Shown one piece after another: positions 109 through 53,570 of a stretch of DNA of 54,228 nucleotides (position 1 is its first letter; the number at the start of each line of letters is the position of its first letter). The position numbers were made by a program, and so were the translations under genes. The DNA comes from a virus: positions 1 through 54,228 of the IMG/VR virus record IMGVR_UViG_3300045988_069299. One strand, written 5' to 3'. The notes under the pieces were generated by a model that had not been told where the DNA came from, ran no database searches, and was given only the letters and a program-made list of their open reading frames with translations.

Positions 109-450
109 TTCATCACTTTCAGCTTCTTTTTTAACTCTACTCATAGTAAAATCAATGGCCGCCTTTACCAGTCCAGAAATATCCAATCTCGCACCAATCT
201 TTATTTTTGTGGATGCAACCTTGGAATCATCTTCACCTCTGTCAAATTCACCGTTCTGCTCCACTTCATGGTAAACAGATTCGTTCGGAGAATAATAACC
301 AAGGCAATCCAGAGGATATTCACAAGCATGGAATCCGCTGTGGCAGGCATCTGCTGTCTCCTCTTCGTACTCCTTGCCTTCTTCGTACTGAAATCCACGG
401 CAAGTCATGTCCTTGTTGAACCCTTTGTAACTCTTAATTACTTTTTCCAT
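1..450 (-). CDS. Tandem-nonapeptide-repeat phage protein, N-terminal part (runs off base 1 and continues at the window end)
   Basis: Hand translation: ATG at 450 behind GGAGGAAGTG gives MEKVIKSYKGFNKDMTCRGFQYEEGKEYEE...SRVKKEAESDEDY, then 9-aa repeats (xxGASSATG) down to base 1. The same frame and repeat resume at 54228. Missing from the ORF track because it has no in-window stop. Resembles a family I recall as DUF7666 (unverified). Confidence 0.8.
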   Translation of the reverse strand, partial: MEKVIKSYKGFNKDMTCRGFQYEEGKEYEEETADACHSGFHACEYPLDCLGYYSPNESVYHEVEQNGEFDRGEDDSKVASTKIKIGARLDISGLVKAAIDFTMSRVKKEAESDEDYGASSATGNCGASSATGYKGASSATGNCGASSATG

Positions 451-2395
451 TTTTCACTTCCTCCACTTTCAAAACCGCATCATCACTTCTGCGGAACATA
501 ATCAACTGACTGTCAACATCAGGAATCTTCCAAGGGTCAAGGCTTTCGGTATCGTCAACCATGATAGGCAATTCCACACCGCACCGCTTCTGAAACGCAT
601 TGCAAATGTCAATTTCCGTCAGAATCCTTGCTCCGTGGTTCATGTTTCGGCTGTAAGGCTCTCCACGGTATGTAAAGTCACAACATTCTTCCGTGTCACC
701 ATTCACAAGAGGTCTAAACATCCGCACAGTGCAGAAGCAAAGATACTTGTTCACATCAGCTTCCAACAGTTCGTTCTTCTTCCGGCTGAATTTCTTTAAC
801 AGGTCAAGCTGTGCCTGCACATCCGTAATCTTCTGTGCAATGTTCTTGCGCTCCTGTTCCAGTTCTGTGATACGCTTATCCACACTCTCGTTAATGCTTA
901 CACTCGCCAAAAACTTATCAACCACAGAAATATCATTGCGGATCTGCTCTTCATCACCTTTTAACTGGATTCTGAGAAGATTCATGTCAGTGAATTTGTG
1001 CATGGCAGCTTCTTTCTCTGCAATCTGTGACTGAATAGCTTTGTATTCTTCTGTGTTGGAAATATCCACGCTTGCCGGAATGGAATTTAAGGCATTATCA
1101 GCAATGGCAATCTCTTTTTCCAACCGCTCCACTTCATCCTCGGTCTTTTTCAGTTCCTCACGCTTATGCTCCAGTTCTTCCTGATCCGCTTTGATATGGT
1201 CAGCACAGGAAGAACCCTCTTTGGTAATCAGTTCCAGTTCATGTGCCTTATGCGTATCAAACTCCGTTCTTAACTGCTCTTTCTTCTCTTCCGGATATTC
1301 CTGTCCACAGTAGGGGCAAATCAGAGAATTTTCATCAAATTTAAGGCTTTTATTCAAATCCCAACTCTTCTTCAATTCCTGTCTCTTCTGCTCATACTGT
1401 GCGATACGCTTTTCCAGTTCCGTGATCTCTTCACGAATGGTGTCTGCCTTAAGCAACTCTTTCTGATGCTCATTCTGAATCTGATTCAGTGTTGTGCGCT
1501 TCTCTCTTCTATCCGCATCCAGTTTTTCATTTGCTTTCTGCTGCAATGCGCTCAACTGACCTTTTAACTCAATGATTCCATCAGACAGCTTATCGTAGGA
1601 AATCATGCTGTTCTGCGTATCTGTCTGCTGCTTAATGTTCTCTGACAGCTTATCCAGTAAAGCTTTCTTTTTCAGTTCCAGATCAGCAAGGTCAATATCC
1701 ACTCTCTGACGGCTCACCTCGTCAATACGGCTCGGAATTTCATCTAACAGGTCCTGCAAACCCTTGGTTCCATTTCTTCCCCTTGTGCCGTACAACTGCG
1801 TATTGCAACGCTTTTTCAGTTCATCAACCGTGCCGTCCTGCAGAACAGCCCTTAATGCTTCAAACTCCGGAAACTGATTGCAAATGTCATCATTACTGTG
1901 CTGACCAAACATATCAGCAAGAATTGCTCTCTGATCCGTTCCACCTTTCAGAAGAAGTGTCATGGCATTGATGCAAAGTGAGAACTTATCTTTTCCGCAT
2001 ACACTCTCTTCCAAAAATGCTTCAAAATCTGCTGCCTTTTTGGGAATATCATTCACATAGTAATCCGTGACATTGCCGGTAAACTCGCCTTTTTTATTGA
2101 AGTTCTGACGGCATACTTTTTTCAGAACCTTGTCTGTACCGTCAATCTCCACGGTAACTTCTGCGGTAATATCTCCGTCGATGTCATTGCCGTCCTTATC
2201 GTGCGGTCTGATTCCGGTGATCTCTCTGCCGTTCTCGTCACGGCATCCAAAAATATACTGAATTGCTCTTTTGATCGTGGACTTACCTGTTTCATTTACA
2301 CCGGAAACCTCTGTCCGGTCGTATAAATCAGTGTCCACTACGTTAGAACCATAGAATTTGCAGAAATTCTGCAAAAAGGTGTGTTTAATCCTCAT
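434..2395 (-). CDS. Rad50/SbcC/SMC-like AAA ATPase with coiled coil and zinc hook
   Basis: ATG at 2395 behind GGGAGGA. Walker A GVNETGKST, a long heptad-rich middle region with CPYCGQ, and a C-terminal Walker B-like LPIMVDDTESLD. Confidence 0.8.
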   Translation of the reverse strand: MRIKHTFLQNFCKFYGSNVVDTDLYDRTEVSGVNETGKSTIKRAIQYIFGCRDENGREITGIRPHDKDGNDIDGDITAEVTVEIDGTDKVLKKVCRQNFNKKGEFTGNVTDYYVNDIPKKAADFEAFLEESVCGKDKFSLCINAMTLLLKGGTDQRAILADMFGQHSNDDICNQFPEFEALRAVLQDGTVDELKKRCNTQLYGTRGRNGTKGLQDLLDEIPSRIDEVSRQRVDIDLADLELKKKALLDKLSENIKQQTDTQNSMISYDKLSDGIIELKGQLSALQQKANEKLDADRREKRTTLNQIQNEHQKELLKADTIREEITELEKRIAQYEQKRQELKKSWDLNKSLKFDENSLICPYCGQEYPEEKKEQLRTEFDTHKAHELELITKEGSSCADHIKADQEELEHKREELKKTEDEVERLEKEIAIADNALNSIPASVDISNTEEYKAIQSQIAEKEAAMHKFTDMNLLRIQLKGDEEQIRNDISVVDKFLASVSINESVDKRITELEQERKNIAQKITDVQAQLDLLKKFSRKKNELLEADVNKYLCFCTVRMFRPLVNGDTEECCDFTYRGEPYSRNMNHGARILTEIDICNAFQKRCGVELPIMVDDTESLDPWKIPDVDSQLIMFRRSDDAVLKVEEVKNGKSN

Positions 2396-2705
2396 TTTTC
2401 CTATCCTCCCAAAGATATAAATACAGTGAATTAACAAACATATAGATTGAGACCGGCTTGTCTGTCTCATTGATCTCCTTGTATAGCTCTGTGCTTGGGT
2501 TCATCTTATCAACAACCCACTTGATCGCCCGGTACACGCTTTCCTTGGTTGTGCTGTGTTCCTCTCCGATAATCCGGTAGATTTCAGAAAGTCTTCTGTT
2601 CCGGTTCTCAAACATCAGCGTTTCAACCTCGATGATGTACTGGAATCCCGGCAAGTACTGTTTCAGCCCCAGTTCTACCAAGATTTTTCTTATCTTCCTT
2701 TCCAT
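2385..2705 (-). CDS. Spo0A C-terminal-domain-like DNA-binding protein
   Basis: 106 aa. LGLKQYLPGFQYIIE and TTKESVYRAIKWVVDKM parallel the Spo0A effector-domain pattern (IGVPAHIKGYQYLREAI ... TTASRVERAIRHAI). Overlaps the next gene by 11 nt. Confidence 0.55.
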   Translation of the reverse strand: MERKIRKILVELGLKQYLPGFQYIIEVETLMFENRNRRLSEIYRIIGEEHSTTKESVYRAIKWVVDKMNPSTELYKEINETDKPVSIYMFVNSLYLYLWEDRKNED

Positions 2706-6777: not shown

Positions 6778-7569
6778 ATGATGAAAAAAGACCGAATCAA
6801 AGAAATATCGACACATCTATCAGTCAACAGAGTAAATTATATGGTAAGTTTTCGTGGGAATCTCCATGAATTTCTAAATGAACCGGACATGACGGTTTAC
6901 AAGCTTGCTGATGAAGCTAATTTGCCTTATTCTACGCTTAATTCACTACTATACGGTAATTCTAACGACACGAAGCTATCGACCGCTGTTGCGCTTGCTA
7001 GAGCCTTTGGAATCAGTGTAGATGAACTGGTAGGTTGCGGCACTATGGAAGATAAGATGTTGGAATCTGTCAAGATATGCCGCAGTCTGCCGGAACACTC
7101 TCTGTACCTTATCCGCTACTTCATCCGTCACCAAGATAAAATCTATTCCAGTCTTGAAAAATCACACAAGTATATTTCTGTCCTTAAACCGCAACTTGTG
7201 AATGGAATTATAGCCACCACAAACGCTGTAGAACCTATTTGCATAGACAAATTACCGGAAGATATAAAATCCAAGGCTTATATCGGTGTGAAAATTCCTT
7301 GCGACTACTATATGCCGTTTTATCTGCCTGGGGAAATTATTCTCCTTGCAGCGGATCGTGAACCGCAATACGGTGAACGATGTATTGTGACCAGTAATGG
7401 TGGGATATATATTGTCGTGAAAACCCATATAATTGAAGATGGTGTAAGAAAATGGAGATATGTTCCGCTCATGTCTCCGAACAGTATACTCCCGGAACAC
7501 ATAGTTGATGACATAATAGGATATGTGGTTGGTTTCGTAAACAATGACGGTGACTGGGGAATCAGATAA
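6778..7569 (+). CDS. CI-like repressor: N-terminal XRE HTH plus C-terminal S24/LexA-like domain lacking the usual Ser motif
   Basis: ATG at 6778 behind GAAAGGGGGAT. HTH pattern TVYKLADEANLPYSTLNSLLYG. The C-terminal half aligns by eye to lambda CI (VKIPCDYYMPF..LPGEIILLAADREPQYGERCIV...IVVKTH), with CDYYM where G(D/N)SM is expected. Confidence 0.7.
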   Translation: MMKKDRIKEISTHLSVNRVNYMVSFRGNLHEFLNEPDMTVYKLADEANLPYSTLNSLLYGNSNDTKLSTAVALARAFGISVDELVGCGTMEDKMLESVKICRSLPEHSLYLIRYFIRHQDKIYSSLEKSHKYISVLKPQLVNGIIATTNAVEPICIDKLPEDIKSKAYIGVKIPCDYYMPFYLPGEIILLAADREPQYGERCIVTSNGGIYIVVKTHIIEDGVRKWRYVPLMSPNSILPEHIVDDIIGYVVGFVNNDGDWGIR

Positions 7570-7576
7570 ATAGATT

Positions 7577-7610
7577 AAGAGCATGGCTTTTACACCATGC
7601 TCTTTTTTGT
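7577..7610 (+). terminator. strong rho-independent terminator after the CI-like gene
   Basis: AAGAGCATGG (7577-7586) pairs with CCATGCTCTT (7595-7604), then TTTTGTTG. Confidence 0.8.
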
Positions 7611-7632
7611 TGTTATTTCGCAAATATTTTTT

Positions 7633-7971
7633 ATGACTACTTCTGTAAATGGCAAGTTAAACCAGAACACCGATTTGACTTTAGTCAATTGTGTATCATG
7701 GGAATCTGACAATACAATTTCAAAAATAGGTAACAGAGTATTTGTAACGTTAGGCGTACAAATTACATCTGAGCAGTCTAGCGGATCATTAATTATTGCC
7801 AGTATTGCAAGGACATATTACCCTAAAACTACGTATGTTAGAGCAAATGCAGCAGGTGGTACAAATGGCGATAATCACATGCTTTATATTAATAAATCTA
7901 ATGGCGTAGTAATATTAAATCTTTCGACAGAACGGTATTATTCTGCCAGTTTCTCATACTTGGCAAATTAG
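7633..7971 (+). CDS. silent alternative tail-fibre C-terminal cassette (112 codons)
   Basis: Open frame MTTSVNGKLNQNTD...SFSYLAN with no RBS, directly behind a terminator. Shares VNGKL, encoded by the 17-bp inverted repeat, and a VNC.W motif with the expressed fibre tip. Its stop lies 1 nt from the fibre stop. Confidence 0.6.
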   Translation: MTTSVNGKLNQNTDLTLVNCVSWESDNTISKIGNRVFVTLGVQITSEQSSGSLIIASIARTYYPKTTYVRANAAGGTNGDNHMLYINKSNGVVILNLSTERYYSASFSYLAN

Positions 7972-8234
7972 GCTATTTATATGCTACAACAAAATTTAGG
8001 GTAAATGTTGCGTCATTACTTACAGTAGCAATTTGATATGCATAAAAATTACCATTAATTGAAAGACGCACATTAACAGCCCAATTACAGTTTACGAACA
8101 CGCCAAATACGTTAGCATTACTTGGTAATCCAAAGTCAGATAAAGATCCTAATAATGACTGTCTATTTGTCACTAGCAGAGTAACAGATGTTGATATTGA
8201 TGCAAATTTCAAACCACTTAACTTGCCATTTACA
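7644..8234. mobile_element. candidate invertible DNA segment bounded by a perfect 17-bp inverted repeat
   Basis: TGTAAATGGCAAGTTAA at 7644-7660 and its reverse complement at 8218-8234. Both copies sit in the same codon phase (V N G K L) of the two convergent reading frames. Confidence 0.6.
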
Positions 8235-9061
8235 TCACTTAATCCCCCAGTGATAGTCCCATCGCCAATAGTCGAAATATCGGTAGTTCCGATAAGGCCT
8301 ATAAGTGATTTAAGGTTTTTTACAGCCAGTTTAAGTTTCCCAAAAATAGATGATAACTTTTCTCCTGTCGTTAATTCCTCTAAAGTTGTTGCTTCTTCAA
8401 ACACCGCAGTCAAATTACTACCGTCACCAGTTTTGGTCAAATAGTTTGTCAAATACGTTTTAGGAATTGCATCTATTTTTTTATCAACGCTTGTTTTGTC
8501 ATAATAATTTGTCAAATCAGAAACTTTTTTTGTAATGTATCCTACATCATTTTCTAATTCGCTAACTTTTGTTGGTATTCCTCCTGTTTGCTGTTTTGCT
8601 TGTTCCATATAATACTTTGCATTATCGGTATCTTCTCCTTCTCTTGTTCCGGTTCCACCTACGGCATAAGATTCAGCCAATACAGATTTTGCATTTGCGG
8701 ATTGCGCATAAGCAGATGCATTTGCGGATTCTACTCTAATATCTGCTAAATAATTAGGCTGAAGCATATCATCTGTTACTGATCCTGTTTTTATCGAAAA
8801 AGAATAAGTCTTATTCTTTCCAGTACCAGTCACGGATACAGCTATGGTTGCAGAATCTTCAAATGTTAATACCGGAACCATAGAACCAATATCAGCTGTA
8901 AACTGTGTTCCATCTTCTGTAGTCATGGTAATGATTCCGTCATCAGACATGGAAAAGCCAACAGGTATTTTTTTCAATGTTAAGGTCAAAAATAATTTTT
9001 TCACCGTTGTATTTTGTAATAGTAATAACACCGGTTGTTTCGTCCATAGTCCAGTCTGCAA
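7973..9061 (-). CDS. tail fibre protein, main reading frame (entered from the 8943-9233 frame at a homopolymer)
   Basis: Long ORF at the end of the tail module, rich in Ser/Thr/Gly/Asn. The portion upstream of about 8975 in this frame looks non-coding (MQTGLWTKQPVLLLL...). The N-terminus is supplied by the overlapping ORF. Confidence 0.75.
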   Translation of the reverse strand: MQTGLWTKQPVLLLLQNTTVKKLFLTLTLKKIPVGFSMSDDGIITMTTEDGTQFTADIGSMVPVLTFEDSATIAVSVTGTGKNKTYSFSIKTGSVTDDMLQPNYLADIRVESANASAYAQSANAKSVLAESYAVGGTGTREGEDTDNAKYYMEQAKQQTGGIPTKVSELENDVGYITKKVSDLTNYYDKTSVDKKIDAIPKTYLTNYLTKTGDGSNLTAVFEEATTLEELTTGEKLSSIFGKLKLAVKNLKSLIGLIGTTDISTIGDGTITGGLSDVNGKLSGLKFASISTSVTLLVTNRQSLLGSLSDFGLPSNANVFGVFVNCNWAVNVRLSINGNFYAYQIATVSNDATFTLNFVVAYK

Positions 9062-9233
9062 TGTTTCCGTTTATTGAAGACTTGTCTACTTTTAAGGCAT
9101 CCTGTGATATGATACGGTTGTCCAACGCATCAATAGCAGAATCCATCTGATTAAGATGGTATGCATCTAAATCCGTGTTTTCACTTGGATAATCTTCCCA
9201 GTTAATTCTGGTATAAACCTTATTCAACGCCAT
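8943..9233 (-). CDS. tail fibre protein, N-terminal fragment (same gene as 7973-9061, different frame)
   Basis: MALNKVYTRINWEDYPSENTDLDAYHLNQMDSAIDALDNRI is a typical fibre N-terminus. The frame ends 8 codons after a run of 7 A (plus-strand T7 at 8968-8974). Removing one A fuses it in frame to ...IEKIPVGFSMSDDG.... Confidence 0.75.
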   Translation of the reverse strand: MALNKVYTRINWEDYPSENTDLDAYHLNQMDSAIDALDNRIISQDALKVDKSSINGNIADWTMDETTGVITITKYNGEKIIFDLNIEKNTCWLFHV

Positions 9234-15803: not shown

Positions 15804-16682
15804 TTACTTTTTGAGATATGCCCTTGTAACCGCACCGACTTTTCCATCTACAGTGATTCCAACACTCTTTTGGAATGCTTTTACTGCATCAGAAGTGGTT
15901 TTTCCAAAATATCCGTCAATGTTCGTCTTACCTTTCGCATTTACAGACGGCATAAAGCCTTTCCTTACAAGTTCGTACTGCACCCACTTGACATCATTTC
16001 CCTTCATCATTGCCAGACGCTTGTAATAAAGAAGTCTTTCCGGCTCTGTATAAGGGTTTCTATATCTTGTAGAATCCTCATATACGGCATCTAACTCCTT
16101 GTACCATACATTCATGTCTACATTGCCTACAATGCCGCCTACACGACCTTTAGAAGTATACTGCCATCCTACCATGTTCGGTACTTGCGGTTGATACTTC
16201 ACATTACACTTGCCGTTATTCTTGCCGTACCGTGCAATCCACATAGGATAACTCACACCGCCATAAGGCTTAATGTATGTCTTGTAAAAACTTTCCCCAG
16301 TGTATACACCGAATGGCAATCCTGCATCGGTGATTACCTTTCCGTAAGCATTGATAATAGAAATAATATTTTTGCCAAGACCTTTCATAACGGCATCTTC
16401 AACATCAAGATATACTGTTACTTTTCTGCCATTAAGAATAGTAAGCACTCTTCTTGCATCAGATCGTGATTTTGCAACCGTTGTAATATATCCGTATTCA
16501 TATACTCCGTGCACATGGACATTGTGCTCTTTACAACCTTTCCAGTTCTCTTCAAACTTCTTGTCCGGGTTCAAATCCTTACGGATGACTTTCAAAATAG
16601 CAAAATCAATACCGTTCTGTTTTACCGCCCACCAGTTAATCGTCCCCTGGTATGAGGACACATCAATTCCTGTTAAACTCAT
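15804..16682 (-). CDS. endolysin: GH25 muramidase plus C-terminal peptidoglycan-binding domain
   Basis: GIDVSSYQGTINWWAVKQNGIDFAILKV is a GH25-type N-terminus. The C-terminal GYFGKTTSDAVKAFQKSVGITVDGKVG is a PG_binding_1-type repeat. ATGA overlap with the upstream gene. Confidence 0.85.
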   Translation of the reverse strand: MSLTGIDVSSYQGTINWWAVKQNGIDFAILKVIRKDLNPDKKFEENWKGCKEHNVHVHGVYEYGYITTVAKSRSDARRVLTILNGRKVTVYLDVEDAVMKGLGKNIISIINAYGKVITDAGLPFGVYTGESFYKTYIKPYGGVSYPMWIARYGKNNGKCNVKYQPQVPNMVGWQYTSKGRVGGIVGNVDMNVWYKELDAVYEDSTRYRNPYTEPERLLYYKRLAMMKGNDVKWVQYELVRKGFMPSVNAKGKTNIDGYFGKTTSDAVKAFQKSVGITVDGKVGAVTRAYLKK

Positions 16683-24353: not shown

Positions 24354-24554
24354 CTACATAAATGTCATTCCGCTGCTTTGGTCTCTTTTTGGAAGTTTCT
24401 TGATCTCACGTTCTCCGGTCTCCGTATGGTAAACAACCATCTTATTGCAATTCCGGCACTTATATGTCTTGTCGATATGCGATTTTGCACTACATTCACC
24501 GACTAACCGTCCGCATCCCGGACAGTACACTCTAATTTTTTGGTTAAAAATCAT
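24354..24554 (-). CDS. zinc-ribbon protein (66 aa)
   Basis: ATG at 24554 behind AAAGAGG. CPGCG...CRNC pair. Confidence 0.6.
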   Translation of the reverse strand: MIFNQKIRVYCPGCGRLVGECSAKSHIDKTYKCRNCNKMVVYHTETGEREIKKLPKRDQSSGMTFM

Positions 24555-25148: not shown

Positions 25149-26902
25149 TACCTCCGTCCGAAAGAGAATGGGTTTTGAATTGCTTCTGCTTTTGCCATAG
25201 TTCCTGCTCTCATTTCATTTTCAAACAATGCAATGCTATCCGGTGCATCATCGTGTTTTACTTTTCCGCTACGTGTCATAGTGGTTAATTCCTTCATGAA
25301 TTTGTAGTACTGGCTCTGCCTGTCCATTTTCTTGAAATCACGAAAATAGTAATCACGAATTACATTATCCCTTGCATTTTCCATTCTCGTAATTTTGTTG
25401 GAACAGTTAAACTTAAACCTTGCGCTACATCTTCCTCCCTGCGACTTTACAATGTCCATAACATCACGACCAAAATATTCCCCGGCACTGTTACTCTCAA
25501 AAGTGACTGTTTTAACATTGTGCTTAATAAGCATATTTGCGCATTCAGGCTTTGTGAACTGTGTTCCTGCATTATCAAATACTACATCAACGATATATAC
25601 CTCGTTACCGTACACATATCCGACTGGCATAGCGCAGCTATCTTCTCCCTTGTCGGCACTATCGCAAGCCGCCATGATTGCATCCGGCTCTCTGTCAACT
25701 GGAAGTTCCTCAAAATAATTCAACTCACTTTCAGAGAACATTCTTCCCTTTGCTTCGTATGGCTCTTGTTGGAACTCTGCAGCCCAGGTTTCTTCGGAAA
25801 CAAGTTTTCTTTCTTTCCGGTAATAGTCCGTAGTGAATATTTTTCTAAGACCTTTTTTGTCCTTTCGGTAAATTTCCCAGTTACTTTCATCTGTAACAGG
25901 ATCAAGTGCCGGAATTGCAACTTCTCTCCATCTCCACCCCAATTCATCAGCCTTGTTCTGTAACGCTGTAATAGGGTCATACAGGCTGTATTTTGTTCCT
26001 TGGATAATAATGGGTGTACCCTCTAATCTACGCCCTAAAACGTCATCTGTGACCTTTTCACACAGGAACTCTAATCTATCACGGTTTCTTGCTTCCTCGT
26101 GATTTTTTACGCAGTCATCAATATAGACAAGCACGTTTGCTTCGGTACAACCTACGATTGCGCCATCAATAGGTCGGCAAGTAAATGTTGGAAAGATATT
26201 CTTACTTTTAAGGTCTATGGACAGATTCTCTGCACTCTTGTATCCATCTTTGCTTATTTTTGTAGCTTCCGGAAAAACACTTAAAAACCGCTGATAGGTA
26301 CTTTCAGTTTCAAATCCTTGCAAAAGGCCACCGTAAAACCTCTTTACCAGTCCTTCACCTTTTCCAACACCGAAAATACTTCCGTCTGGGTCTCTTCCGC
26401 CCATCATCTGTGCCAGTTTCAGCCCACCAGTGGTCTTACCAGTACGTTTTGGTTGTGAAACTGACAGAAAATCCAGTTTTCCATCGTAAATCTCTTGATA
26501 TGCTCCTACTACTGGCTTTAGAACCTGTCTTCTAGGAAAATAGAACCTCTTCCACGGGTCTTTTTCGTCAATTTCGATGTAATAGAAAAAGCTGTCAACC
26601 AGATAAGCTGCTTCGTACATTAAAACATTGTAGAATTGTTCTAAAACCTTGTATGATGTGTCATTACCTCCTGCGTATACTTCCAAATCAGCAACTCTTC
26701 CACCAGTCTTGTCCTTGACATATTGTGCAATGTAAGATTTTGCTTTTGCAGATTGTTGCAATCCGTATTGAACATCATGTTCTGACCGGAATGAAACCGC
26801 CAAAGCATCTATGTACGCATCAATGACCTGTTCATCAATTCCCTTGCGCTGTATGTAATTGTCATAGCTGTTTACTGCCGATATAAGGCTCTGACTTGCC
26901 AA
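25145..26902 (-). CDS. terL: terminase large subunit
   Basis: 585 aa. Walker A-like SQPKRTGKTT, Walker B-like VLVYIDD, acidic nuclease-half motifs. Apparent TTG start behind GGAAGGAGG. Confidence 0.9.
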   Translation of the reverse strand: MASQSLISAVNSYDNYIQRKGIDEQVIDAYIDALAVSFRSEHDVQYGLQQSAKAKSYIAQYVKDKTGGRVADLEVYAGGNDTSYKVLEQFYNVLMYEAAYLVDSFFYYIEIDEKDPWKRFYFPRRQVLKPVVGAYQEIYDGKLDFLSVSQPKRTGKTTGGLKLAQMMGGRDPDGSIFGVGKGEGLVKRFYGGLLQGFETESTYQRFLSVFPEATKISKDGYKSAENLSIDLKSKNIFPTFTCRPIDGAIVGCTEANVLVYIDDCVKNHEEARNRDRLEFLCEKVTDDVLGRRLEGTPIIIQGTKYSLYDPITALQNKADELGWRWREVAIPALDPVTDESNWEIYRKDKKGLRKIFTTDYYRKERKLVSEETWAAEFQQEPYEAKGRMFSESELNYFEELPVDREPDAIMAACDSADKGEDSCAMPVGYVYGNEVYIVDVVFDNAGTQFTKPECANMLIKHNVKTVTFESNSAGEYFGRDVMDIVKSQGGRCSARFKFNCSNKITRMENARDNVIRDYYFRDFKKMDRQSQYYKFMKELTTMTRSGKVKHDDAPDSIALFENEMRAGTMAKAEAIQNPFSFGRRY

Positions 26903-28783: not shown

Positions 28784-28800
28784 CCTCATATCCTCCGTAA

Positions 28801-28873
28801 CCCATGCAGACGGAATCGAACCGCCGACACACATCCTATGCGGATGCTGTTCTACCACTGAAACTATACATGG
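28801..28873 (-). tRNA. tRNA with anticodon CAT (Met, or Ile2 if lysidine-modified), with G at position 33
   Basis: Hand fold: acceptor CCATGTA/TGCATGG, D arm GTTT-CAGTGGTA-GAAC, anticodon arm GCATC-CGCATAG-GATGT, T arm GGCGG-TTCGATT-CCGTC. 73 nt, no encoded CCA. Confidence 0.75.
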
Positions 28874-29032
28874 GAATCGCACCGTAAAACCTTTTATGGC
28901 TTGCGCTTGCCATAACCAAATGTGCACCGCCTACTTGTCACTGACTATCCACAATCTCACAGTCTTGTCTGTTCTCTACTTCATAGGCTTGGTTTTCGCT
29001 AAACATATGTGGCTTACGTTTTAGCTAGGGAA

Positions 29033-29136
29033 TAGTTGCACGGAGAGTCGAACTCCGTCAGACCAAACCATGCCAATGCATTTCAAATCTGCAAATTCTA
29101 CTTTGCAAAGAGTTTTCTGTTCCCGATAATACAACT
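29033..29136 (-). tRNA. aberrant 104-nt tRNA-like element (canonical acceptor and T arm, non-canonical core)
   Basis: Acceptor AGTTGTA/TGCAACT. T arm CGGAG-TTCGACT-CTCCG. One possible anticodon arm is TGCAG-ATTTGAA-ATGCA (TTG). That leaves a 33-nt D region and a 19-nt variable region. Confidence 0.4.
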
Positions 29137-29205
29137 ACTATCCATATATTTCCCATCGACCTGAACTATTGCAGTAGTACCAGACTAAGTGGAGATAAGG
29201 ATAAA

Positions 29206-29287
29206 CGCCGTACACAGGATTTGAACCTGCAAGCCTTTTACAGCCAACGGTTTTCAATACCGCTCCCTCACCACCCGGACATACGGC
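29206..29287 (-). tRNA. tRNA-Ser (TGA)
   Basis: Acceptor GCCGTAT/GTACGGC, anticodon arm GCGGT-ATTGAAA-ACCGT, 16-nt variable arm, T arm GCAGG-TTCAAAT-CCTGT. 82 nt. Confidence 0.75.
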
Positions 29288-29413
29288 GAATATAGCAGTG
29301 TAGTGGAACTGCTATATCCGAAATTGCTTTTGCCACTACTTTGTACAATCTCATGCGGACTTTCTATACCGCTTACGGCAAACCTTTTCCCAGGTTGATT
29401 GTCGTAAGTTTAG

Positions 29414-29496
29414 CGCAGATACAAGGACTCGAACCTTGACAGCATTTCTGCTGGATAGCTTAGCAAGCTACTGTGTTACCATTACACCATATCTGC
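29414..29496 (-). tRNA. tRNA-Ser (GCT)
   Basis: Acceptor GCAGATA/TATCTGC, D arm GTGT-AATGGTA-ACAC, anticodon arm GTAGC-TTGCTAA-GCTAT, variable hairpin CAGCA-GAAA-TGCTG, T arm CAAGG-TTCGAGT-CCTTG. 83 nt. Confidence 0.85.
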
Positions 29497-29653
29497 GTAT
29501 CGGTGGTTTTTTACTTGGTTATCACCACCCAAGGATCTTTTAGTCAGCCGCAAGCGGCTCTATCAAGTTCCCATGAGATAAACATTAACCGGTGTATTTA
29601 TCCCCTATGCTTCTGTAATGAGCATACTCGGAGTGTACTTGCAACAACACCCA

Positions 29654-29727
29654 TTGTGACGAAGGGACTCGAACCCATACCACACAGTTTAGAAGGCTGT
29701 TGCTCTCTCCATTTGCGCTACGTCACA
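29654..29727 (-). tRNA. tRNA-Arg (TCT)
   Basis: Acceptor TGTGACG/CGTCACA, anticodon loop CTTCTAA, T loop TTCGAGT. 74 nt. One mismatch in each of the D, anticodon and T stems. Confidence 0.7.
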
Positions 29728-29854
29728 ATGTGCGTTTCCATAAGCTGTATGCCTACATTTAAGGAGCTGACGCAGCGCAACACTTATGGCTATTTTTTTA
29801 ATGTAGGGCATCCGCCAGTCACCTACGTGTTGAGTTGGGAGCGACCCAACCCCG

Positions 29855-29938
29855 TGGGGAAAGAAGGAGTCGAACCTTCGGTGTTTCTAATGTCACGGTT
29901 TTACAGACCGCTGCAATCGCCACTATGCATATTTCCCC
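29855..29938 (-). tRNA. tRNA-Tyr (GTA), class II
   Basis: Acceptor GGGGAAA/TTTCCCC, anticodon arm GCGGT-CTGTAAA-ACCGT, 15-nt variable region, T arm GAAGG-TTCGACT-CCTTC. 84 nt. Confidence 0.8.
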
Positions 29939-30201
29939 AAAACCTGTGCCGTATAACCACGACTAAACTTCTGGCACACATATCTGCCACCTACCGATTA
30001 TTGCAATCACGGTATCGTCTTATCACCGCAGATAAAGTTTTCTCCGCTATATAGTTGCAAGGCTTCAAGCGGTTACGTGGAAAACCCTCACGAGCCTTGC
30101 GACGGCTCTTAACAGCATTCCGCTATGAGGTGAAAGGAGTATTCCATGTAGGTGGAATATTCGCAGATGGCAAAGACCAAAAGAAGAAAACATCTGCGAA
30201 A

Positions 30202-30273
30202 CAGGACTACCAGGATTCGAACCTGGGAATGCAGCAGTCAAAGTGCTGTGCCTTACCGCTTGGCGATAGTCCT
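30202..30273 (-). tRNA. tRNA-Gln (TTG)
   Basis: Acceptor AGGACTA/TAGTCCT, D arm GCC-AAGCGGTAA-GGC, anticodon arm CAGCA-CTTTGAC-TGCTG, T arm CCAGG-TTCGAAT-CCTGG. 72 nt. Confidence 0.85.
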
Positions 30274-30571
30274 AAACTCCGGGAGAGAGACCATCTGCTC
30301 CCGGATTATTTCCGTGAAACACCCTATCTTTATCTAAAAAATTGTCTCGCCTGTGTACGGTACTTTGAAAAACTTGGTGTTGTCGAACGCATATTTCCAT
30401 TTTTCGTTTCCCACACACAGGCTACATACACTCTTGATGCCTTGATTTCTCTGCCACATATCCAATGCCAACACAACACCGGATATTCGGCAATAACAAT
30501 GGCTTTATGAATTTAACCCATTCAACATTGTGATATGGGATAATTCGCATAATCTCCGGTAACCACATAAA

Positions 30572-31871: not shown

Positions 31872-32630
31872 CTACTCATTTGCATCTGTATTGTCACTGT
31901 CATACGTTCCGGAATCGGTCAACATTGATTTATTTTGTCCAAAATTTGTGTCTAATCGTGGAAGTTGGTCGGCTGTCCTGGTTATCTTGTGTACAATCTC
32001 TTGCTGTGTGGTCTGTTTCCGCCCGTGGTCGTTGTTTAATCGTTCCGTTGCTCCCAGCGCATTCCGCAGATTAAAAGCAACAAGCTGATCACAATCTGCA
32101 TCATCTAACCAATTTACAAAAGCTTTTCTGACCTCGTCCATGCTCGATGTACTTGATTTAGTCCTCCATGCACTCAAAGCCTGTTTAGATATCCCTGTTA
32201 ATATCTTAAATGTATCAGCTGTAGCAGTCATATCATAAGCATTAGCTAACTCCCTAAGATATAAATAAACCTCATACAACAGATCTATGTTGTACGCATT
32301 GTAGTTAGTTAGCATTTGGTTGATACTATTATCCACTACGTTTTGGGGTATATCTTTTAATACATTACTAGGTCTTATATAATTGTTATATATATATTGC
32401 ATGGCACCATTAAAAACCGGTTGCCGTTGTGATCTCATGTCATCGATGCCATAAGCTGCACAATAATCGTCAAAGTATTTCCGGATATTTTTTTTAATCT
32501 CGTCAATGTTTGGAATCTCTCTGACGTCCTGCACCGCTCTACACCTCCTGAAATCTGCAATAAAAAAATCACAAGCATCACTCAATAAACCTATGTCTTT
32601 TGATCTCCTCCACAGATCAGGTAAAAACAT
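31872..32630 (-). CDS. terminase small subunit-like protein (tentative)
   Basis: 252 aa. ILTGISKQALSAWRTK (HTH) followed by LVAFNLRNALGATERLNNDHG resembles the TerS pattern (gis.qT.y.W ... gaiF.LKN.fGw.d). No SD sequence before ATG 32630. Lies about 5 kb upstream of terL. Confidence 0.4.
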   Translation of the reverse strand: MFLPDLWRRSKDIGLLSDACDFFIADFRRCRAVQDVREIPNIDEIKKNIRKYFDDYCAAYGIDDMRSQRQPVFNGAMQYIYNNYIRPSNVLKDIPQNVVDNSINQMLTNYNAYNIDLLYEVYLYLRELANAYDMTATADTFKILTGISKQALSAWRTKSSTSSMDEVRKAFVNWLDDADCDQLVAFNLRNALGATERLNNDHGRKQTTQQEIVHKITRTADQLPRLDTNFGQNKSMLTDSGTYDSDNTDANE

Positions 32631-37075: not shown

Positions 37076-37858
37076 TTAGCATCCGCAACCAGTGTTGCAA
37101 CCACATCCGCATCCGTAATATACATTAGGGTTGGGAACCTGGTATGCCGGGATGGGCGCAGGATTCACAGCGTTGATGATCTGCTGTGTCTGTGCACTCA
37201 TGGCAGTAGTCAGAAGAGCATTCTGACGATCCTGAGAAGCGGCTCTGCGCAGATCGTTGTTCTCTGCCTGCAGAGTAGCGATCTTATCCTGACATAAGTA
37301 GTCAAGGATTGCTCTTGTACCGGCGTTCTGGCTGTCGATAATATCACGAGTGTTGTTATTCATGGTGTTCTGCAATGCGCAAGTATTCGTTGCCATATTG
37401 TAGTTTACACCCTGGATAGCTTCACGGGTATCGCAGCAGCACTGTGCTAACTGTGCCTGTAAAGCGTTAGCATTCTGCATTCCTGCTACGGTGTCTGCAT
37501 TGATAGCCTGTTGGATGCCATAGCCAGTCTGTAAAATGTTGGTATTTACGCCATTAAATCCGGTAAGCATACCATTGTTTACAGCGTAGAATCCGTCACA
37601 CAGACCGTTGTTGATTCCGTCCAGTTTACCGATGATAGACTGGGTGTCGAACCCTCTTTGCAGTGCAGAATCGGTATAGTAACTGGAATTAGAGCCATTA
37701 CCGCCCCATCCATTACCGCCCCAACCTCCAAAAATCGCAAAAATTACGACTATGAACCAGAGCCATCCACCGTCACCAAATGCACCATTATTTCCGTAGC
37801 CATTTCCGGCAGCCGGAATAACAGGCATGGTAAAAGGACTGTTGTTTGTTTCAAACAT
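37076..37858 (-). CDS. membrane-anchored Gly/Asn/Gln-rich protein with CCC motif and C-terminal (GC)n tail
   Basis: GGWLWFIVVIFAIFGGWGGNGWGGNG (TM plus GW repeats), LAQCCCDTREA, and a C-terminus YYGCGCGCNTGCGC. No family recognised. Confidence 0.65.
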   Translation of the reverse strand: MFETNNSPFTMPVIPAAGNGYGNNGAFGDGGWLWFIVVIFAIFGGWGGNGWGGNGSNSSYYTDSALQRGFDTQSIIGKLDGINNGLCDGFYAVNNGMLTGFNGVNTNILQTGYGIQQAINADTVAGMQNANALQAQLAQCCCDTREAIQGVNYNMATNTCALQNTMNNNTRDIIDSQNAGTRAILDYLCQDKIATLQAENNDLRRAASQDRQNALLTTAMSAQTQQIINAVNPAPIPAYQVPNPNVYYGCGCGCNTGCGC

Positions 37859-38614: not shown

Positions 38615-38667
38615 GGCTATTCTCCCTTTCTTCCATTGATTCTATCTGTTTCGCAATTTCAACTTCA

Positions 38668-38856
38668 TCAAGTGTCTGATATGTCGGCTTGTTCATAAGT
38701 CCCAACGGACTGAAATTCATAAGCATTACCCGTTTCTCCTAAAACTTCCTCGATCACATGAACCATGATTGATTGATACTTAATCGGCACTTCCCTTGTA
38801 CGTTCTTTGCTGAATATATGTTCCAGTGTTTCATCTGAAAATTTGAATTTTCCCAT
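38668..38856 (-). CDS. hypothetical protein (62 aa)
   Basis: First ORF after the attP-like region. RBS AAGGAGGGATGACCTT then ATG. Confidence 0.55.
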   Translation of the reverse strand: MGKFKFSDETLEHIFSKERTREVPIKYQSIMVHVIEEVLGETGNAYEFQSVGTYEQADISDT

Positions 38857-39208
38857 AAGGTCATCCCTCCTTATGATTAAATTTTTGCATAAAAAAAAGA
38901 GAGTGAAAATATCATTTTCCTCTCGTTAAAATATCATTTGCATAAGGCTTTTCTATGTACCAATTATGTACCAATTTTTATTAAATTATAAAGAATTATG
39001 TTAAATTACGTTAAAGAATAAAATGTCGAAAACACTGATAAACACTGCATTTGTAAGGTTTTGTAAGATTATAAGAAAATACGTGAAATATGGTAAAATA
39101 TAACGATACCTAATTTCATATTTTTTCATCACCTCTTAAATGCCTTGATTTTACGGCATTTCTTTCTTTAAAATTTGTATTTATGTACCAATTATGTACC
39201 ACTTTAGA
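38857..39208. other. attP-like AT-rich region with candidate integrase arm-type repeats
   Basis: The 19-nt ATGTACCAATTATGTACCA occurs at 38955-38973 and 39183-39201. AAAATATCATTT x2, AAACACTG x2, and inverted repeat AATGCC...GGCATT at 39139-39160. Directly downstream of int. Confidence 0.6.
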
Positions 39209-40339
39209 TCAAATTACTTTCAAAGCATCTGCAACCATACTTATTTCTTTCTGCTTCTGGTCGTCTGTCGTGTGCACATAAAGATTCATTGTTATGCCTA
39301 TATTTGAGTGTCCCAAAAGTGTCTGTAATGTTTTTGGCATCATTCCTGCTTCAATACATCTCGTTGCAAAAGTATGTCTTAATATGTGCATTGCAATTTT
39401 TCGTATACCTGCTTTTTCACATACTTTAAAAAGCATCGTGTCGTATGTGCTATTTTTAACTGGCGTACCTTTTCTACAAACGAATACGGCATCTTTCCAC
39501 TCCAAAGATATAAAAGGTAATGACTGATTTTTCTTCTTCTGTAATTTCAACAATCGAATTGCTTCATCTGTCAATGGAATAGTACGATACCCAGATTTAC
39601 TTTTCGGGTCTCCTTTTCTCCACTCTTTAGTAGAATGTCGGTACTCCATAGTTTTAGAAATAGTCATTGTTTTTTTGCAAAAATCAATATCTTTCCATTC
39701 CAACCCAACCATTTCACCTGTTCTTAATCCTGTTTGTAATATAAAGAGATATTGATATTCATAAGGGCAACCAACTATTTCATGGCAGAATTTCTTTTGC
39801 TCTTCAATAGTAAGTGCTTCTTTCTTTTCCGACGGTTTTCCTATGTCGTACTTTACCATTTTAGTACATGGGTTTTTAGTAATTATGTCATTTTGATAGG
39901 CATAATCAAGCATATTATAAAGTGCTATCCTTGCTTGATATATTGTAGTGGTCTTATAACCGTAATCTGACATATTGTTCATAATTTGTTGACAATGCAT
40001 TGTATTTACTTCTTTCAGCAACTTATGTCCTATAACAGGAGCAATGTTTTTAATATATCTTTCTCTGTAATTTCTTACCGTATTTTGTCTTACTGTTTTC
40101 TCTTTTATAGAAATCCAGTATTCGTACCATGCGTTTACAATTATGTCTTGTGGAAAGTCAATATTGCTATGCGCATCTGAATACTGGTTATCTGCAAGCC
40201 ACTTTTGACAATCTTTTACCTTTAAAAATAATTTTTGAATACGCTTTCCATTTTTTGAAGTGTATCTTCCCACATAATATCCGTCTTTTCTTTGACTTAT
40301 TCCTTGTCCCAATTCCTTTCCTTTTAGGTCTTTCCCCAA
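39209..40339 (-). CDS. int: tyrosine integrase (Tn916/phage type with N-terminal arm-binding domain)
   Basis: C-terminal HILRHTFATRCIEAG...LLGHSNIGITMNLYVH (R..H.LRH...Y catalytic pattern). N-terminal ISQRKDGYYVGRY. Likely TTG start at 40339 behind GGAAAGGAG (track ORF extends to 40381, also a TTG). Confidence 0.9.
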   Translation of the reverse strand: MGKDLKGKELGQGISQRKDGYYVGRYTSKNGKRIQKLFLKVKDCQKWLADNQYSDAHSNIDFPQDIIVNAWYEYWISIKEKTVRQNTVRNYRERYIKNIAPVIGHKLLKEVNTMHCQQIMNNMSDYGYKTTTIYQARIALYNMLDYAYQNDIITKNPCTKMVKYDIGKPSEKKEALTIEEQKKFCHEIVGCPYEYQYLFILQTGLRTGEMVGLEWKDIDFCKKTMTISKTMEYRHSTKEWRKGDPKSKSGYRTIPLTDEAIRLLKLQKKKNQSLPFISLEWKDAVFVCRKGTPVKNSTYDTMLFKVCEKAGIRKIAMHILRHTFATRCIEAGMMPKTLQTLLGHSNIGITMNLYVHTTDDQKQKEISMVADALKVI

Positions 40340-40413
40340 AACTTTACACTCCTTTCCAATTATGAGAAAAGCCTTATGCAATCTGATATTTTATCACATA
40401 AGGCTTTAATTGT

Positions 40414-40812
40414 CTACAATTCCACATTATCAGAGATAAACTTTTCAAATTCTTTGCGCTTTATTAAACGTTTTTTTCCTACAAAAATTACAAAATTACA
40501 TCTTGGATTGTTGGAAATTTCTCTGATTTTATTTATTCCTATATTGCTGTATTCGGCAGCTTCATCAAGTGTTAGTGTTACTTTTTCCCATACAGGAACC
40601 GTTTTATTCATAACTTCTTCACCTCCGATTTTGTCTTTTATACTTTTTACTCTTCTGTTTACGGTTGCTATCGGAAGAAAAGTTTTTGCAGATATCTGTT
40701 CTAAACTCTTACCTCCTGCAAGCAACCAAAACACTTTTTCTTCCTCTTCCGTGAAATTGGCGTTCCGGAAGATTTCTTCAAGTTCTGGCTTAGTCAGTTT
40801 TGATAACTTCAT
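40414..40812 (-). CDS. fusion of a sigma/LuxR-type HTH domain and an excisionase-type HTH domain
   Basis: N-terminal half FTEEEEKVFWLLAGGKSLEQISAKTFLPIATVNRRVKSI. C-terminal half VTLTLDEAAEYSNIGINKIREISN...FVIFVGKKRLIKRKEFEKFI (Xis-like). An internal GGAGGTGAAGAAGTT then ATG could give a stand-alone Xis. Confidence 0.65.
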   Translation of the reverse strand: MKLSKLTKPELEEIFRNANFTEEEEKVFWLLAGGKSLEQISAKTFLPIATVNRRVKSIKDKIGGEEVMNKTVPVWEKVTLTLDEAAEYSNIGINKIREISNNPRCNFVIFVGKKRLIKRKEFEKFISDNVEL

Positions 40813-40840
40813 AAGCCATTCTCCTTATCTAAATTTCAGT

Positions 40841-41098
40841 TTACTTAAGTATTTCCACAGTGATTTTAACCCTATCACCGTTCGTAAAATCATAAGAGTT
40901 GGTATACCAATGCTTACCATTCTCTACCATATCCTTATGTATCTCGGTGATGTAATCAACTTCGGTCTCCTTGGTCTTTACCCTTGTATTAACTTCTTCC
41001 TGCATTGCTTTTTCCTCCAATTCTTCCGTACTATATTTTCGATAGCTGATTCCGTAATTTGTAAATCCACCGGACTGATATGTTATAAGTCGTGACAT
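40841..41098 (-). CDS. hypothetical protein (85 aa)
   Basis: Complete ORF upstream of xis-int. Confidence 0.55.
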   Translation of the reverse strand: MSRLITYQSGGFTNYGISYRKYSTEELEEKAMQEEVNTRVKTKETEVDYITEIHKDMVENGKHWYTNSYDFTNGDRVKITVEILK

Positions 41099-48777: not shown

Positions 48778-49341
48778 TTACTCAAAAATAGGCTTCTCAA
48801 TATAGATCCCGGTATTTTCCACCAGTTCTCTCCATAAATCCATGAAATCCTTTCCGTTGCACTTGTCTCCAGCTTTGTCCATGTGGTCAGAAAACTTATC
48901 CTTGAAATTCGTCAGCTTCTTCTTACCGAATCCATCTTCCATAAGGATCACCATTCCATATAGGATGTACCTTGTGGACAACTCATTGATAAGGTTGTTA
49001 CATCTGACCTGTTCCTGGATGCATTTCTGCGCTACAACCGACTTGTAATGTGGATAATCAGCTTCGGTAAATTCCTTGTACTCAATCGTCCAGTCTGCAA
49101 AATCGTTAAGCCTGTTCTGCAGCTCCGTATAAGGCTCATTCTCGTACTTTTCGTTGTACTCGGTGAATTTACCACAGAAGTCGGAAAGTCTCGTCTGTGA
49201 GTACTTGTAGTCTTTCCACAGGGTATAGCAGAACAGTGTCAGTATTCCGGTGAATGGACTTCTCTCCGCAGACTGTTTCAAAAGTTCTGTCTGCCGCATG
49301 ATTTTCAAAATTTCCTGCGGATTGTCATATCGTTTTGGCAT
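48778..49341 (-). CDS. hypothetical protein (187 aa)
   Basis: Complete ORF upstream of the replisome organizer. Confidence 0.65.
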   Translation of the reverse strand: MPKRYDNPQEILKIMRQTELLKQSAERSPFTGILTLFCYTLWKDYKYSQTRLSDFCGKFTEYNEKYENEPYTELQNRLNDFADWTIEYKEFTEADYPHYKSVVAQKCIQEQVRCNNLINELSTRYILYGMVILMEDGFGKKKLTNFKDKFSDHMDKAGDKCNGKDFMDLWRELVENTGIYIEKPIFE

Positions 49342-49730: not shown

Positions 49731-49921
49731 TTTCTGAAAAACTCCTTTAATTTATTGCATACTTGCTGAAATCTATACTTAAACAAATACTTTTTAAAAG
49801 ATTCAGTTCCGTATTGATAGCAAAGATACATAATTTGTTTTTGAGTAGAAAGAGATTCATAAAACTCCTTGTCAGTTTCTTCAACGTATTGTAAAAGTAC
49901 TTCATAGTCTGTTTTATTCAT
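49724..49921 (-). CDS. hypothetical protein (65 aa)
   Basis: ATG 49921 (MNKTDYEVLL...) overlaps the GIY-YIG gene end by 8 nt. Confidence 0.5.
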   Translation of the reverse strand: MNKTDYEVLLQYVEETDKEFYESLSTQKQIMYLCYQYGTESFKKYLFKYRFQQVCNKLKEFFRKW

Positions 49922-50516
49922 TACTTTCACCATCCTTTTCTCCATGCAAAAGTTCCATAAACCGAACAAATTGTCTTTGCGACACGGAATTGTTCTGCTT
50001 CTCAGGCTTCAAACTGATTATCAGATGCTTGTCGGCAATGTTCGCCAGTTCCCTTGCAAGGTTGATTTTGCCTTGCTGTATGCCTTGCGAATAAGTTTTA
50101 GGCTGTTTATATTGCCCTGTTACTTGTTTCCCTTTACCTTGGCTTCCTGCCGTGACGTTGTACATCTGAATACCACTATCAGAACATTTTTTAATATACT
50201 CGACTTCTTTTTCATCAAGTTCTGATATCCCACAGGTTAAAAAATGCAATGACCACCCATGCGGATTATCTTTGCTCTTGAAGCCATGTTTTTTAAGGCT
50301 CAATGCTATATGGTCGTATTCCGCAAGGTGAGAAGATGTGCGCTCTAAAAGTCTGACAGCTTGCCCACAATACCCTCTTCTGATTCCTGCTTCGTCCACT
50401 CTGTAAAACAAATAGATTCCGCTAACATTCGATATTTCGGGGCATATCTGTTTTATTTTTTTCTCACGTTCTGCTTTCATAGCATAGATTTTCTTCCAAT
50501 CAGCCAACCGAATCAC
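49914..50516 (-). CDS. GIY-YIG domain nuclease
   Basis: SGIYLFYRVDEAGIRRGYCGQAVRLLERTSSH ... EKEVEYIK ... YN matches the GIY-YIG motif order. GTG start overlaps the upstream TGA. Confidence 0.7.
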   Translation of the reverse strand: MIRLADWKKIYAMKAEREKKIKQICPEISNVSGIYLFYRVDEAGIRRGYCGQAVRLLERTSSHLAEYDHIALSLKKHGFKSKDNPHGWSLHFLTCGISELDEKEVEYIKKCSDSGIQMYNVTAGSQGKGKQVTGQYKQPKTYSQGIQQGKINLARELANIADKHLIISLKPEKQNNSVSQRQFVRFMELLHGEKDGESNE

Positions 50517-53569: not shown

Positions 53570-53570
53570 A

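Follow-up and report, generated by a model that had tools for sequence, protein, structure and literature searches.

How can a phage exchange the receptor-binding tip of its tail fibre when no invertase gene accompanies the exchange? This question is raised by positions 7633 to 8234 of the IMG/VR virus record IMGVR_UViG_3300045988_069299, whose full 54,228 nucleotides are referred to as the window below. Here, a minus-strand tail-fibre gene meets a small convergent open reading frame (ORF), and each of them holds one arm of an inverted repeat. From the sequence of the window, a first-pass annotation had proposed that inversion between the arms swaps the fibre tip, and it had found no serine invertase. 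From the comparison with related loci we are highly confident that the switch is real. Our reading of the whole, held with moderate confidence, is that of a working invertible tip cassette driven by a site-specific recombinase acting in trans.

A fibre-tip cassette and its two orientations

At the cassette, a repeat finder recovers a single perfect inverted repeat of 17 nucleotides (nt), TGTAAATGGCAAGTTAA, in agreement with the annotation; its arms lie at 7644-7660 and 8218-8234, with a spacing of 557 nt. Only these two copies exist in the window, even when up to three mismatches are allowed, and a perfect 17-nt inverted repeat within 1.5 kilobases (kb) was present in only 2 out of 200 dinucleotide-preserving shuffles of the window. 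Other features on which the proposal was built are also borne out. Both arms are read in the codon phase V-N-G-K-L, at 7645-7659 on the plus strand and at 8233-8219 on the minus strand, and the two frames end tail to tail with their stops (7969-7971 and 7973-7975) 1 nt apart. A strong terminator, a hairpin at 7577-7604 followed by a T-run, precedes the plus-strand ORF, and on reading the region no Shine-Dalgarno-like sequence was found upstream of its ATG at 7633.

We refer to the tip linked to the constant fibre trunk as tip A and to the silent tip in the convergent ORF as tip B. After the repeat, tip A has the 81 amino acids (aa) given by the annotation, while tip B has 103 aa and not 104. 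The VNC.W motif that the tips were said to share does occur in both of them. However, it is found at different positions and BLASTP gives no significant similarity between the tips (E = 0.29), thus the motif is no evidence of homology. The minus-strand fibre gene does carry the arm, but the ORF that had been called expressed is not intact in the window, where the A-run at 8968-8974 is A7 instead of the A6 of the relatives. The extra A splits the gene into two overlapping ORFs, 8943-9233 and 7973-9061, while relatives encode an intact 419-aa protein. It could be a homopolymer sequencing error, an inactivating mutation or slippage-based phase variation.

A search with the fibre protein returns many intact 419-aa homologues, together with proteins of 423-448 aa that carry other tips. 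In the latter, identity to the trunk is 99-100% over the first ~338 residues, and the divergence is complete directly after ...GGLSDVNGKL; at least eight unrelated tips are attached at this GGLSDVNGKL junction. Among them, proteins of 441 aa (P0113 and others) consist of the trunk and a close relative of the silent tip B of the window, and the contigs that encode them hold tip A as a silent convergent ORF behind an MTTSVNG.L leader. In the related locus L001, which encodes P0113, this ORF reads MLFFVVISQIFFMTTSVNGNL followed by tip A, and the inverted repeat is kept. Thus, L001 has the cassette of the window in the opposite orientation between the same flanks. Tip A is also the silent copy in L002 and L056.

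The breakpoints can be read from the alignment of the window with L056. Collinearity of the flanks, at 97.2% and 95.0% identity, extends as far as the arms, while the 591 nt from 8234 to 7644 of the window align to L056 in reverse at 99.66%. The inversion breakpoints are therefore exactly the two arms. Inversion of 7661-8217 had been predicted to fuse the trunk in frame to the alternative tip, and this product exists in nature as the 441-aa proteins.

The same picture is seen on a larger scale. Anchored on the gene for an SbcC-like protein, we collected 80 IMG/VR loci that cover the fibre region. All loci that contain this region are built in the order trunk, site (+), tip forward, tip reversed, site (-), leader and a gene for a CI-like repressor, and the arrangement from trunk to leader is found in ~190 related loci. 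The leader, ...ATGACTRCTTC, stands before whichever tip is silent. When all loci were compared, the whole inner segment was reversed in 50 locus pairs. The flipped cassettes of L060 and L076 are 100% identical over 595 nt and those of L027 and L073 over 565 nt, though the flanks differ by 3-4%. Clustering of all tips in ~90 loci gave 52 tip families. Of these, 12 are seen in either orientation, at similar frequencies where sampling is good (tip A 14 forward and 12 reverse, tip B 11 and 13). At least five cassette types are found both ways round. From the identical but flipped cassettes and the balanced families it follows that flips recur and that they postdate every point mutation in the cassette. 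Both of the orientations that the proposed switch calls for are thus present among related phages, as in L001 and L056 and in the twelve tip families.

An assembly artefact is excluded, as the 17-nt repeat is shorter than the k-mers of the assemblers and both junctions recur in independent Logan, ENA and JGI assemblies. A frozen relic, in which one ancient inversion or duplication left the two orientations as stable alleles, would fit the frameshifted fibre gene of the window and the fact that the flips are seen only between different assemblies. However, with five or more cassette types and twelve balanced families in both orientations, two flipped types without a single difference between genomes that have diverged at the flanks, and the artefact excluded, we consider a relic scarcely credible. 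That the switch is reversible within one lineage is something we infer from these sequence comparisons. A 714-nt contig and L273, which joins two different leaders, point to possible heterogeneity within a sample. They are suggestive only, and may be assembly-graph paths through mixtures of phages.

Structurally, the tips were modelled with AlphaFold at moderate confidence, with a predicted local distance difference test (pLDDT) score of 67 for tip B and 62 for tip A. The best PDB matches of the tip B model are almost all receptor-binding heads, namely those of TP901-1, p2 and Listeria phage PSA and adenovirus fibre knobs (TM 0.55-0.58). The model of tip A is a small beta-sandwich for which the fold search gave no specific match. 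The comparison of predicted structures with receptor-binding domains that the first-pass annotation had suggested thus gives a likeness for tip B. Together with the natural fusions, the predicted structure of tip B supports the view that the tips are alternative receptor-binding domains, and we infer that swapping them changes the host range.

The recombination site and the movement of cassettes

The trunk-side sequence at the site is GATGTAAATGGCAAGTTA and the silent-side sequence CTTCTGTAAATGGCAAGTTA. Across 76 loci, among them the ones whose trunk has diverged (...AINDVNGKL), a 16-mer of the site shows practically no variation, and at least 116 exact occurrences of it exist in IMG/VR, many of them as convergent pairs 500-720 nt apart. 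In other phage backgrounds the shared core is the 14-nt TAAATGGCAAGTTA. The conserved block is thus 14-17 nt long, and it is asymmetric. Outside it, the outer flank on the silent side exists in at least three unrelated versions, and the inner flanks, i.e., the first codons of the tips, are not conserved. A G-to-T variant at position 13 always moves with the tip, and arms that differ there have still recombined. The crossover must therefore lie within the first 12 nt, TGTAAATGGCAA.

The repeat had been described as unlike a gix or hix site save for a CTGTAAA stretch, and we agree. No 26-base-pair (bp) two-fold-symmetric site of the gix/cix/hix type is found at the arms, with their unconserved inner flanks and differing outer flanks; there is no dyad symmetry, and CTGTAAA is the only stretch that recalls a gix half-site. 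An ATGTAAA in the site resembles the XerD arm of the Firmicutes dif site. However, the central region of dif would then lie outside the shared 16-mer and differ between the arms, and the idea of host Xer recombination was dropped.

The site is also found in arrangements more complex than a single pair of tips. L002, L003 and L055 have three tips, with tip C expressed, a site overlapping the stop of C, tip B in direct and tip A in inverted orientation. By analogy, this layout resembles a shufflon. In L034 (1872-5050) two fibre genes (...AITELNGKL) follow each other in tandem, and an invertible pair belongs to each. A third cassette in this locus has no trunk but a leader at either end, so that both of its tips are silent. 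This trunk-less cassette looks like a silent store.

Tip B is also found, 99-100% identical, on other N-terminal parts, as in P0125 (...KEGFTELNGKL) and P0139 (...AIADVNSKL). P0125 is encoded in a prophage with a P2-like contractile-tail baseplate (GpU, gp25-like, Baseplate_J, Tail_P2_I). In 15 kb of this prophage, the only DNA shared with the window is 7646-8232/8234, at 99.83% identity and bounded by the sites, and the only proteins in common are the tips and a distant lysin. Short Logan contigs place the cassette beside an Amidase_3 gene, beside a third trunk (...AVADAVTDVTGKL) and behind a GH25 gene, terminator and leader. The same cassette is thus present in unrelated backgrounds with the similarity ending at the sites, which means that cassettes move between unrelated phages at the site boundaries. 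Trunk-less cassettes with leaders on both sides are also seen in L269-L278, for example between a GH25 lysin gene and an Amidase_3 gene.

Candidate enzymes and the genome around the cassette

The six frames of the window were screened for serine recombinases with a Hin/Gin/gamma-delta profile, and none was found in the complete genome. Neither was a second, divergent tyrosine recombinase found in the window, where profile and pairwise screens return only the tyrosine integrase Int. The window is a complete, circularly permuted genome of ~54 kb, because its end and start adjoin in the relative L004 and its ends lie inside a 27-nt tandem repeat. The idea that missing DNA hides an invertase was therefore rejected. 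The CI-like protein, whose gene is a constant neighbour of the cassette and is conserved alongside it in relatives, was likewise rejected as a hidden recombinase, as it matches repressor families over its full length and only its helix-turn-helix (HTH) part matches PDB sequences.

The search was extended to 116 further site-bearing loci (958 kb). In these there is no tyrosine recombinase, and a large serine recombinase ~1 kb from the cassette is present in only 4 of the 116. These four are most simply integrases beside the repressor gene. A small serine invertase adjacent to the cassette is absent from all ~190 loci. The statement that the window has no serine invertase, and Int as its sole recombinase, is thus upheld by six-frame and tyrosine screens that agree, in a complete genome and with the support of the 116 further loci. 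An accessory small serine recombinase of 234 aa, nearest to the Sin/Bin3 resolvases, is seen in L041-L043 (~15879-16580), ~11 kb from the cassette.

Int is the only site-specific recombinase of the complete genome, and its non-canonical use was one of the enzyme sources that the first-pass annotation had considered. However, the window-type Int is present in only 16 IMG/VR contigs, compared with more than 469 members of the family. Matched by contig name, L008, L040, L075 and L076 combine this cassette and site with the window-type Int, L014, L015 and L041-43 combine them with other tyrosine integrases, and L004, L005, L063, L069 and L074 with large serine integrases (Resolvase, Recombinase, Zn_ribbon). 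Relatives with the identical site and flipped cassettes have divergent tyrosine or large serine integrases. As different enzyme families are not expected to share one 14-16-nt target, Int is rejected as the invertase. Further, there is no third copy of the site near int or attP, and the protein has the usual layout of an arm-binding integrase. A double role of Int is, in our view, highly improbable.

The invertase could also be a conserved phage protein without detectable similarity to serine or tyrosine recombinases. Many early-region proteins have no Pfam or PHROG function, for example those at 52733-53596, 49914-50516, 48778-49341, 37076-37858 and 31872-32630. However, the 15-kb part of the contractile-tail prophage shares none of them with the window, its tips and distant lysin being all that is common, and across the different backgrounds nothing is conserved beside the cassette. 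We consider an invertase of this kind improbable.

Another explanation, which the first-pass annotation did not raise, does without a dedicated enzyme. Homologous recombination could act on the short repeat, through RecT and a partner nuclease, host RecA or template switching, and VNGKL would then be a selected linker. RecT is an addition to the inventory of the earlier annotation; it is a homologous-recombination protein and not a site-specific recombinase. The phage has genes for both RecT and the SbcC-like protein, and these are kept in relatives. That no invertase was found in the window screens or the further loci fits this explanation as well. Phage recombinases of the Rad52/RecT type are said to produce mosaicism through relaxed homologous recombination. 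However, the identity shared by the arms is only 13-17 nt, and 12 nt where they differ at position 13. A length of 12-17 nt is far below that of an efficient substrate for RecA or RecT. In addition, the identity has its outer edge at one and the same nucleotide in all lineages. Drift or conversion of the non-coding leader to a longer homology with the trunk, which exchange driven by homology would predict, has never taken place. Finally, the near 50:50 orientations and the flipped cassettes of up to 100% identity suggest frequent events. We therefore consider homologous recombination unlikely.

This leaves a site-specific recombinase in trans as our preferred reading. It is favoured because unrelated phages of the same hosts use one site, and because the identity is short and sharply bounded with cassette exchange precisely at the sites. 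Supply of the enzyme by the host or by a co-resident element is the favoured option, to which we would give about an even chance, and the source is probably the Clostridia host. In the proposed mechanism, the trunk-end codons for V-N-G-K-L would double as the recombination site, with the second site, inverted, behind a leader that has neither promoter nor ribosome-binding site, just past the terminator of the repressor gene. Recombination between the sites would flip the 557-nt segment, joining the other tip in frame to the trunk and silencing the first. The recombinase would be a conservative site-specific enzyme, neither encoded beside the cassette nor identical with the phage integrase. The same site also serves as the boundary at which whole cassettes move between unrelated phages and, in some genomes, is used in larger shufflon-like arrays and trunk-less storage cassettes.

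More tentatively, TAAATGGCAAGTTA could be the target of a host-encoded or communal recombinase that is a shared service for unrelated phages of gut Clostridia, flipping their tips and swapping cassettes with co-resident phages and trunk-less storage loci. We regard this as possible, though rather doubtful.

Several points weigh against a recombinase in trans. The searches gave no candidate enzyme, and the evidence on the host reaches only to the level of Bacillota/Clostridia. RecT and the SbcC-like protein could recombine short repeats without any site-specific enzyme, and selection for a common linker for module exchange could keep the site constant under a homology mechanism too. The site is without obvious dyad symmetry and is like no known recombinase site. 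All evidence for flipping comes from comparing assemblies of different samples, and with its frameshifted fibre gene the window copy may be defective or mis-sequenced.

The coordinates of the cassette and the other features are collected in Table 1. On the minus strand of the genome the order is terminase, portal, capsid, a GH25/PG_binding_1 lysin, tape measure, distal tail proteins and fibre. After the fibre follow the cassette, the convergent CI-like repressor gene, a cro-like gene, an anti-repressor and the early region, which holds the SbcC-like ATPase, RecT, a DnaD-like loader and a methylase. The endolysin gene at 15804-16682 (GH25 and PG_binding_1 in relatives) lies upstream of the tape-measure gene and not after the fibre genes, which is not where a lysis gene is usually found. 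At 28800-30274 the minus strand carries a cluster of six tRNA genes (Met, Ser, Ser, Arg, Tyr, Gln). At positions 1-120 and 54109-54228 there is a 27-nt tandem repeat (ACCTGTGGCAGAGGATGCACC and 6 variable nt), in frame with coding sequence, which explains the cut point of the circular genome; the assembled copy number may differ from the true one. No close cultured phage was found, and the best terminase match, at 45%, is to an uncultured phage from human faeces. The proteins encoded at the ends of the window had no identical entry on record. A search of genome contigs with Int for a host or att site gave only a 25% match in Halarcobacter. The bacterial DNA beside a prophage with the same cassette, judged from a host-flank protein, points to an abundant gut member of the Bacillota/Clostridia.

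Table 1. Coordinates of the cassette and of other features of the window.
Feature	Position	Strand	Remarks
Silent-side recombination site (arm), TGTAAATGGCAAGTTAA	7644-7660	+	VNGKL codons 7645-7659; inversion breakpoint versus L056
Expressed-side recombination site (arm), inside fibre gene	8218-8234	-	VNGKL codons 8233-8219
Silent alternative tip B, 103 codons and stop TAG 7969-7971	7660-7971	+	Natural 441-aa fusions; tip of unrelated prophage; model
Trunk-linked tip A, 81 codons (8218 down to 7976), stop 7973-7975	7973-8218	-	Silent copy in L001, L002, L056; beta-sandwich model
Constant fibre trunk, ATG at 9233, end ...TITGGLSD	8235-9233	-	+1 A interruption in A-run 8968-8974
Hairpin terminator, T-run to ~7610	7577-7604	both	10-11 bp stem; ends convergent CI-like gene; downstream of fibre operon
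Non-coding leader of silent tip, ATG 7633 (MTTS), no ribosome-binding site	7605-7643	+	Constant outer flank on silent side
Convergent CI-like repressor gene, 263 aa, HTH and repressor-like C-terminal part	6778-7569	+	phrog_4, residues 44-301
RecT-family single-strand annealing protein	51975-52724	-	PF03837, E = 1e-42
SbcC-like ATPase	434-2470		Close to RecT on the circular genome
Tyrosine integrase Int	39209-40381	-	Only site-specific recombinase of the genome; usual arm-binding integrase layout

The integration module (window 38615-40850; L188-L267) is freely swapped among relatives, with at least five divergent types of tyrosine integrase as well as large serine integrases at the same position. 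The resemblance to the window-type module stops near 40842. The integrase gene is bracketed by a second 17-nt inverted repeat without mismatches, TTGCATAAGGCTTTTCT (38938-38954 and 40365-40381), with one arm in the presumed attP region and the other at the 5' end of int. Both arms are kept in 16 relatives. As the orientation of int is the same in all 16, this repeat was rejected as a switch, and its arms may instead bind Int or have a regulatory function. The region between the portal and the terminase large-subunit genes is spanned by a third perfect 17-nt inverted repeat, TTGCAATTCCGGCACTT (24445-24461 and 25904-25920; spacing 1442 nt).

Known inversion systems and the meaning of the switch

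Programmed inversions in the tail fibres of prophages are an established class (Milman et al. 2023, PMC9881135). The closest precedent for an inversion that lacks its enzyme is found in the bifidophages 689b-1 and Bb423phi2, which are integrated at tRNA-Met and contain a ~500-bp inversion at an 8-bp repeat, CAGGGTTA, with no flanking recombinase (Mavrich et al. 2018, PMC6109161). Its authors proposed an invertase in trans, 'not previously reported in phage genomes'. Both there and here, the 3' end of a structural gene is inverted together with a small convergent ORF at a short repeat, and the locus has no recombinase. However, the bifidophage case consists of two genomes, genes without known function and an Actinobacteria host, and the sites differ in sequence. 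In the system described here, a core of 14-17 nt (TAAATGGCAAGTTA) and a fibre-tip target are found in hundreds of genomes with more than 50 tip families, the cassette is present in unrelated types of Clostridia phages, and comparison rules out the integrase.

The Rin shufflon of Bifidobacterium and Eggerthella prophages is similar in architecture (PMC6109161, PMC8778435). It also combines a constant N-terminal part of the receptor-binding protein with variable C-terminal tips like the TP901-1 head, in gut Gram-positive hosts, and short asymmetric repeats lie upstream of each tip, one of them inside the gene. In its multi-tip arrays an extra site directly follows the stop codon, comparable to L002. 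However, the Rin shufflon has its own armless tyrosine invertase gene, rin, beside the tips, and its sites are TTCCCTAACCC or TTCCGTAT instead of TAAATGGCAAGTTA; a rin-type gene was found neither in the genome of the window nor in the 116 further loci. The R64 shufflon (Rci, pilV) also has short, partly conserved sites at the junction of the constant and variable parts of an adhesin, and multi-segment arrays comparable to L002 and L034. It differs by an adjacent dedicated tyrosine recombinase gene, rci, by residing on a plasmid and not in a phage, and by another site sequence. The site of the cassette is short and asymmetric, like rix or the conserved part of the sfx sites of R64.

The first-pass annotation had compared the cassette to the host-range switches Gin/G of Mu, Cin/C of P1 and Min of p15B. 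The logic of an invertible fibre segment holds, while their adjacent serine invertase and symmetric 26-bp sites have no counterpart here. Like these systems and Pin/P of e14, the cassette combines a constant fibre part with alternative C-terminal parts and has its inverted repeats in coding sequence; and, like Mu and P1, unrelated phages have homologous segments in common. The invertases Gin, Cin, Pin and Min can act in trans on each other's sites. In contrast to the cassette, these systems have an adjacent gene for a small serine invertase (Resolvase domain and HTH, ~190 aa) and 26-bp dyad-symmetric sites with a 2-bp core. They use a recombinational enhancer inside the segment and depend on Fis. 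They belong to Proteobacteria, and their segments include tail-fibre assembly genes, while here the tips are single small head domains. To our knowledge, the invertase of the textbook switches of Mu and P1 always travels with the segment. Thus, the logic of the inversion is known; what is unusual is a widespread system without an invertase that doubles as a network for exchanging cassettes among gut phages.

The switch is common in phages of human-gut Clostridia: it is seen on hundreds of contigs and in two or more unrelated phage architectures, with over 50 tips. It gives a concrete and testable case for the idea of an invertase in trans, which until now rested on two Bifidobacterium prophages. 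A short defined site with a natural library of tips would also be a toolkit at hand for re-targeting phages of Firmicutes that are hard to culture. If a host or communal recombinase is responsible, a bacterial enzyme would partly control the host range of gut phages, receptor-binding domains would pass as discrete cassettes between phages that are not related, and metagenomic prediction of host range from fibres would have to count the silent tips. If that recombinase is indeed a service shared by these phages, more than 50 receptor-binding domains would form an integron- or shufflon-like commons for which no phage carries the enzyme.

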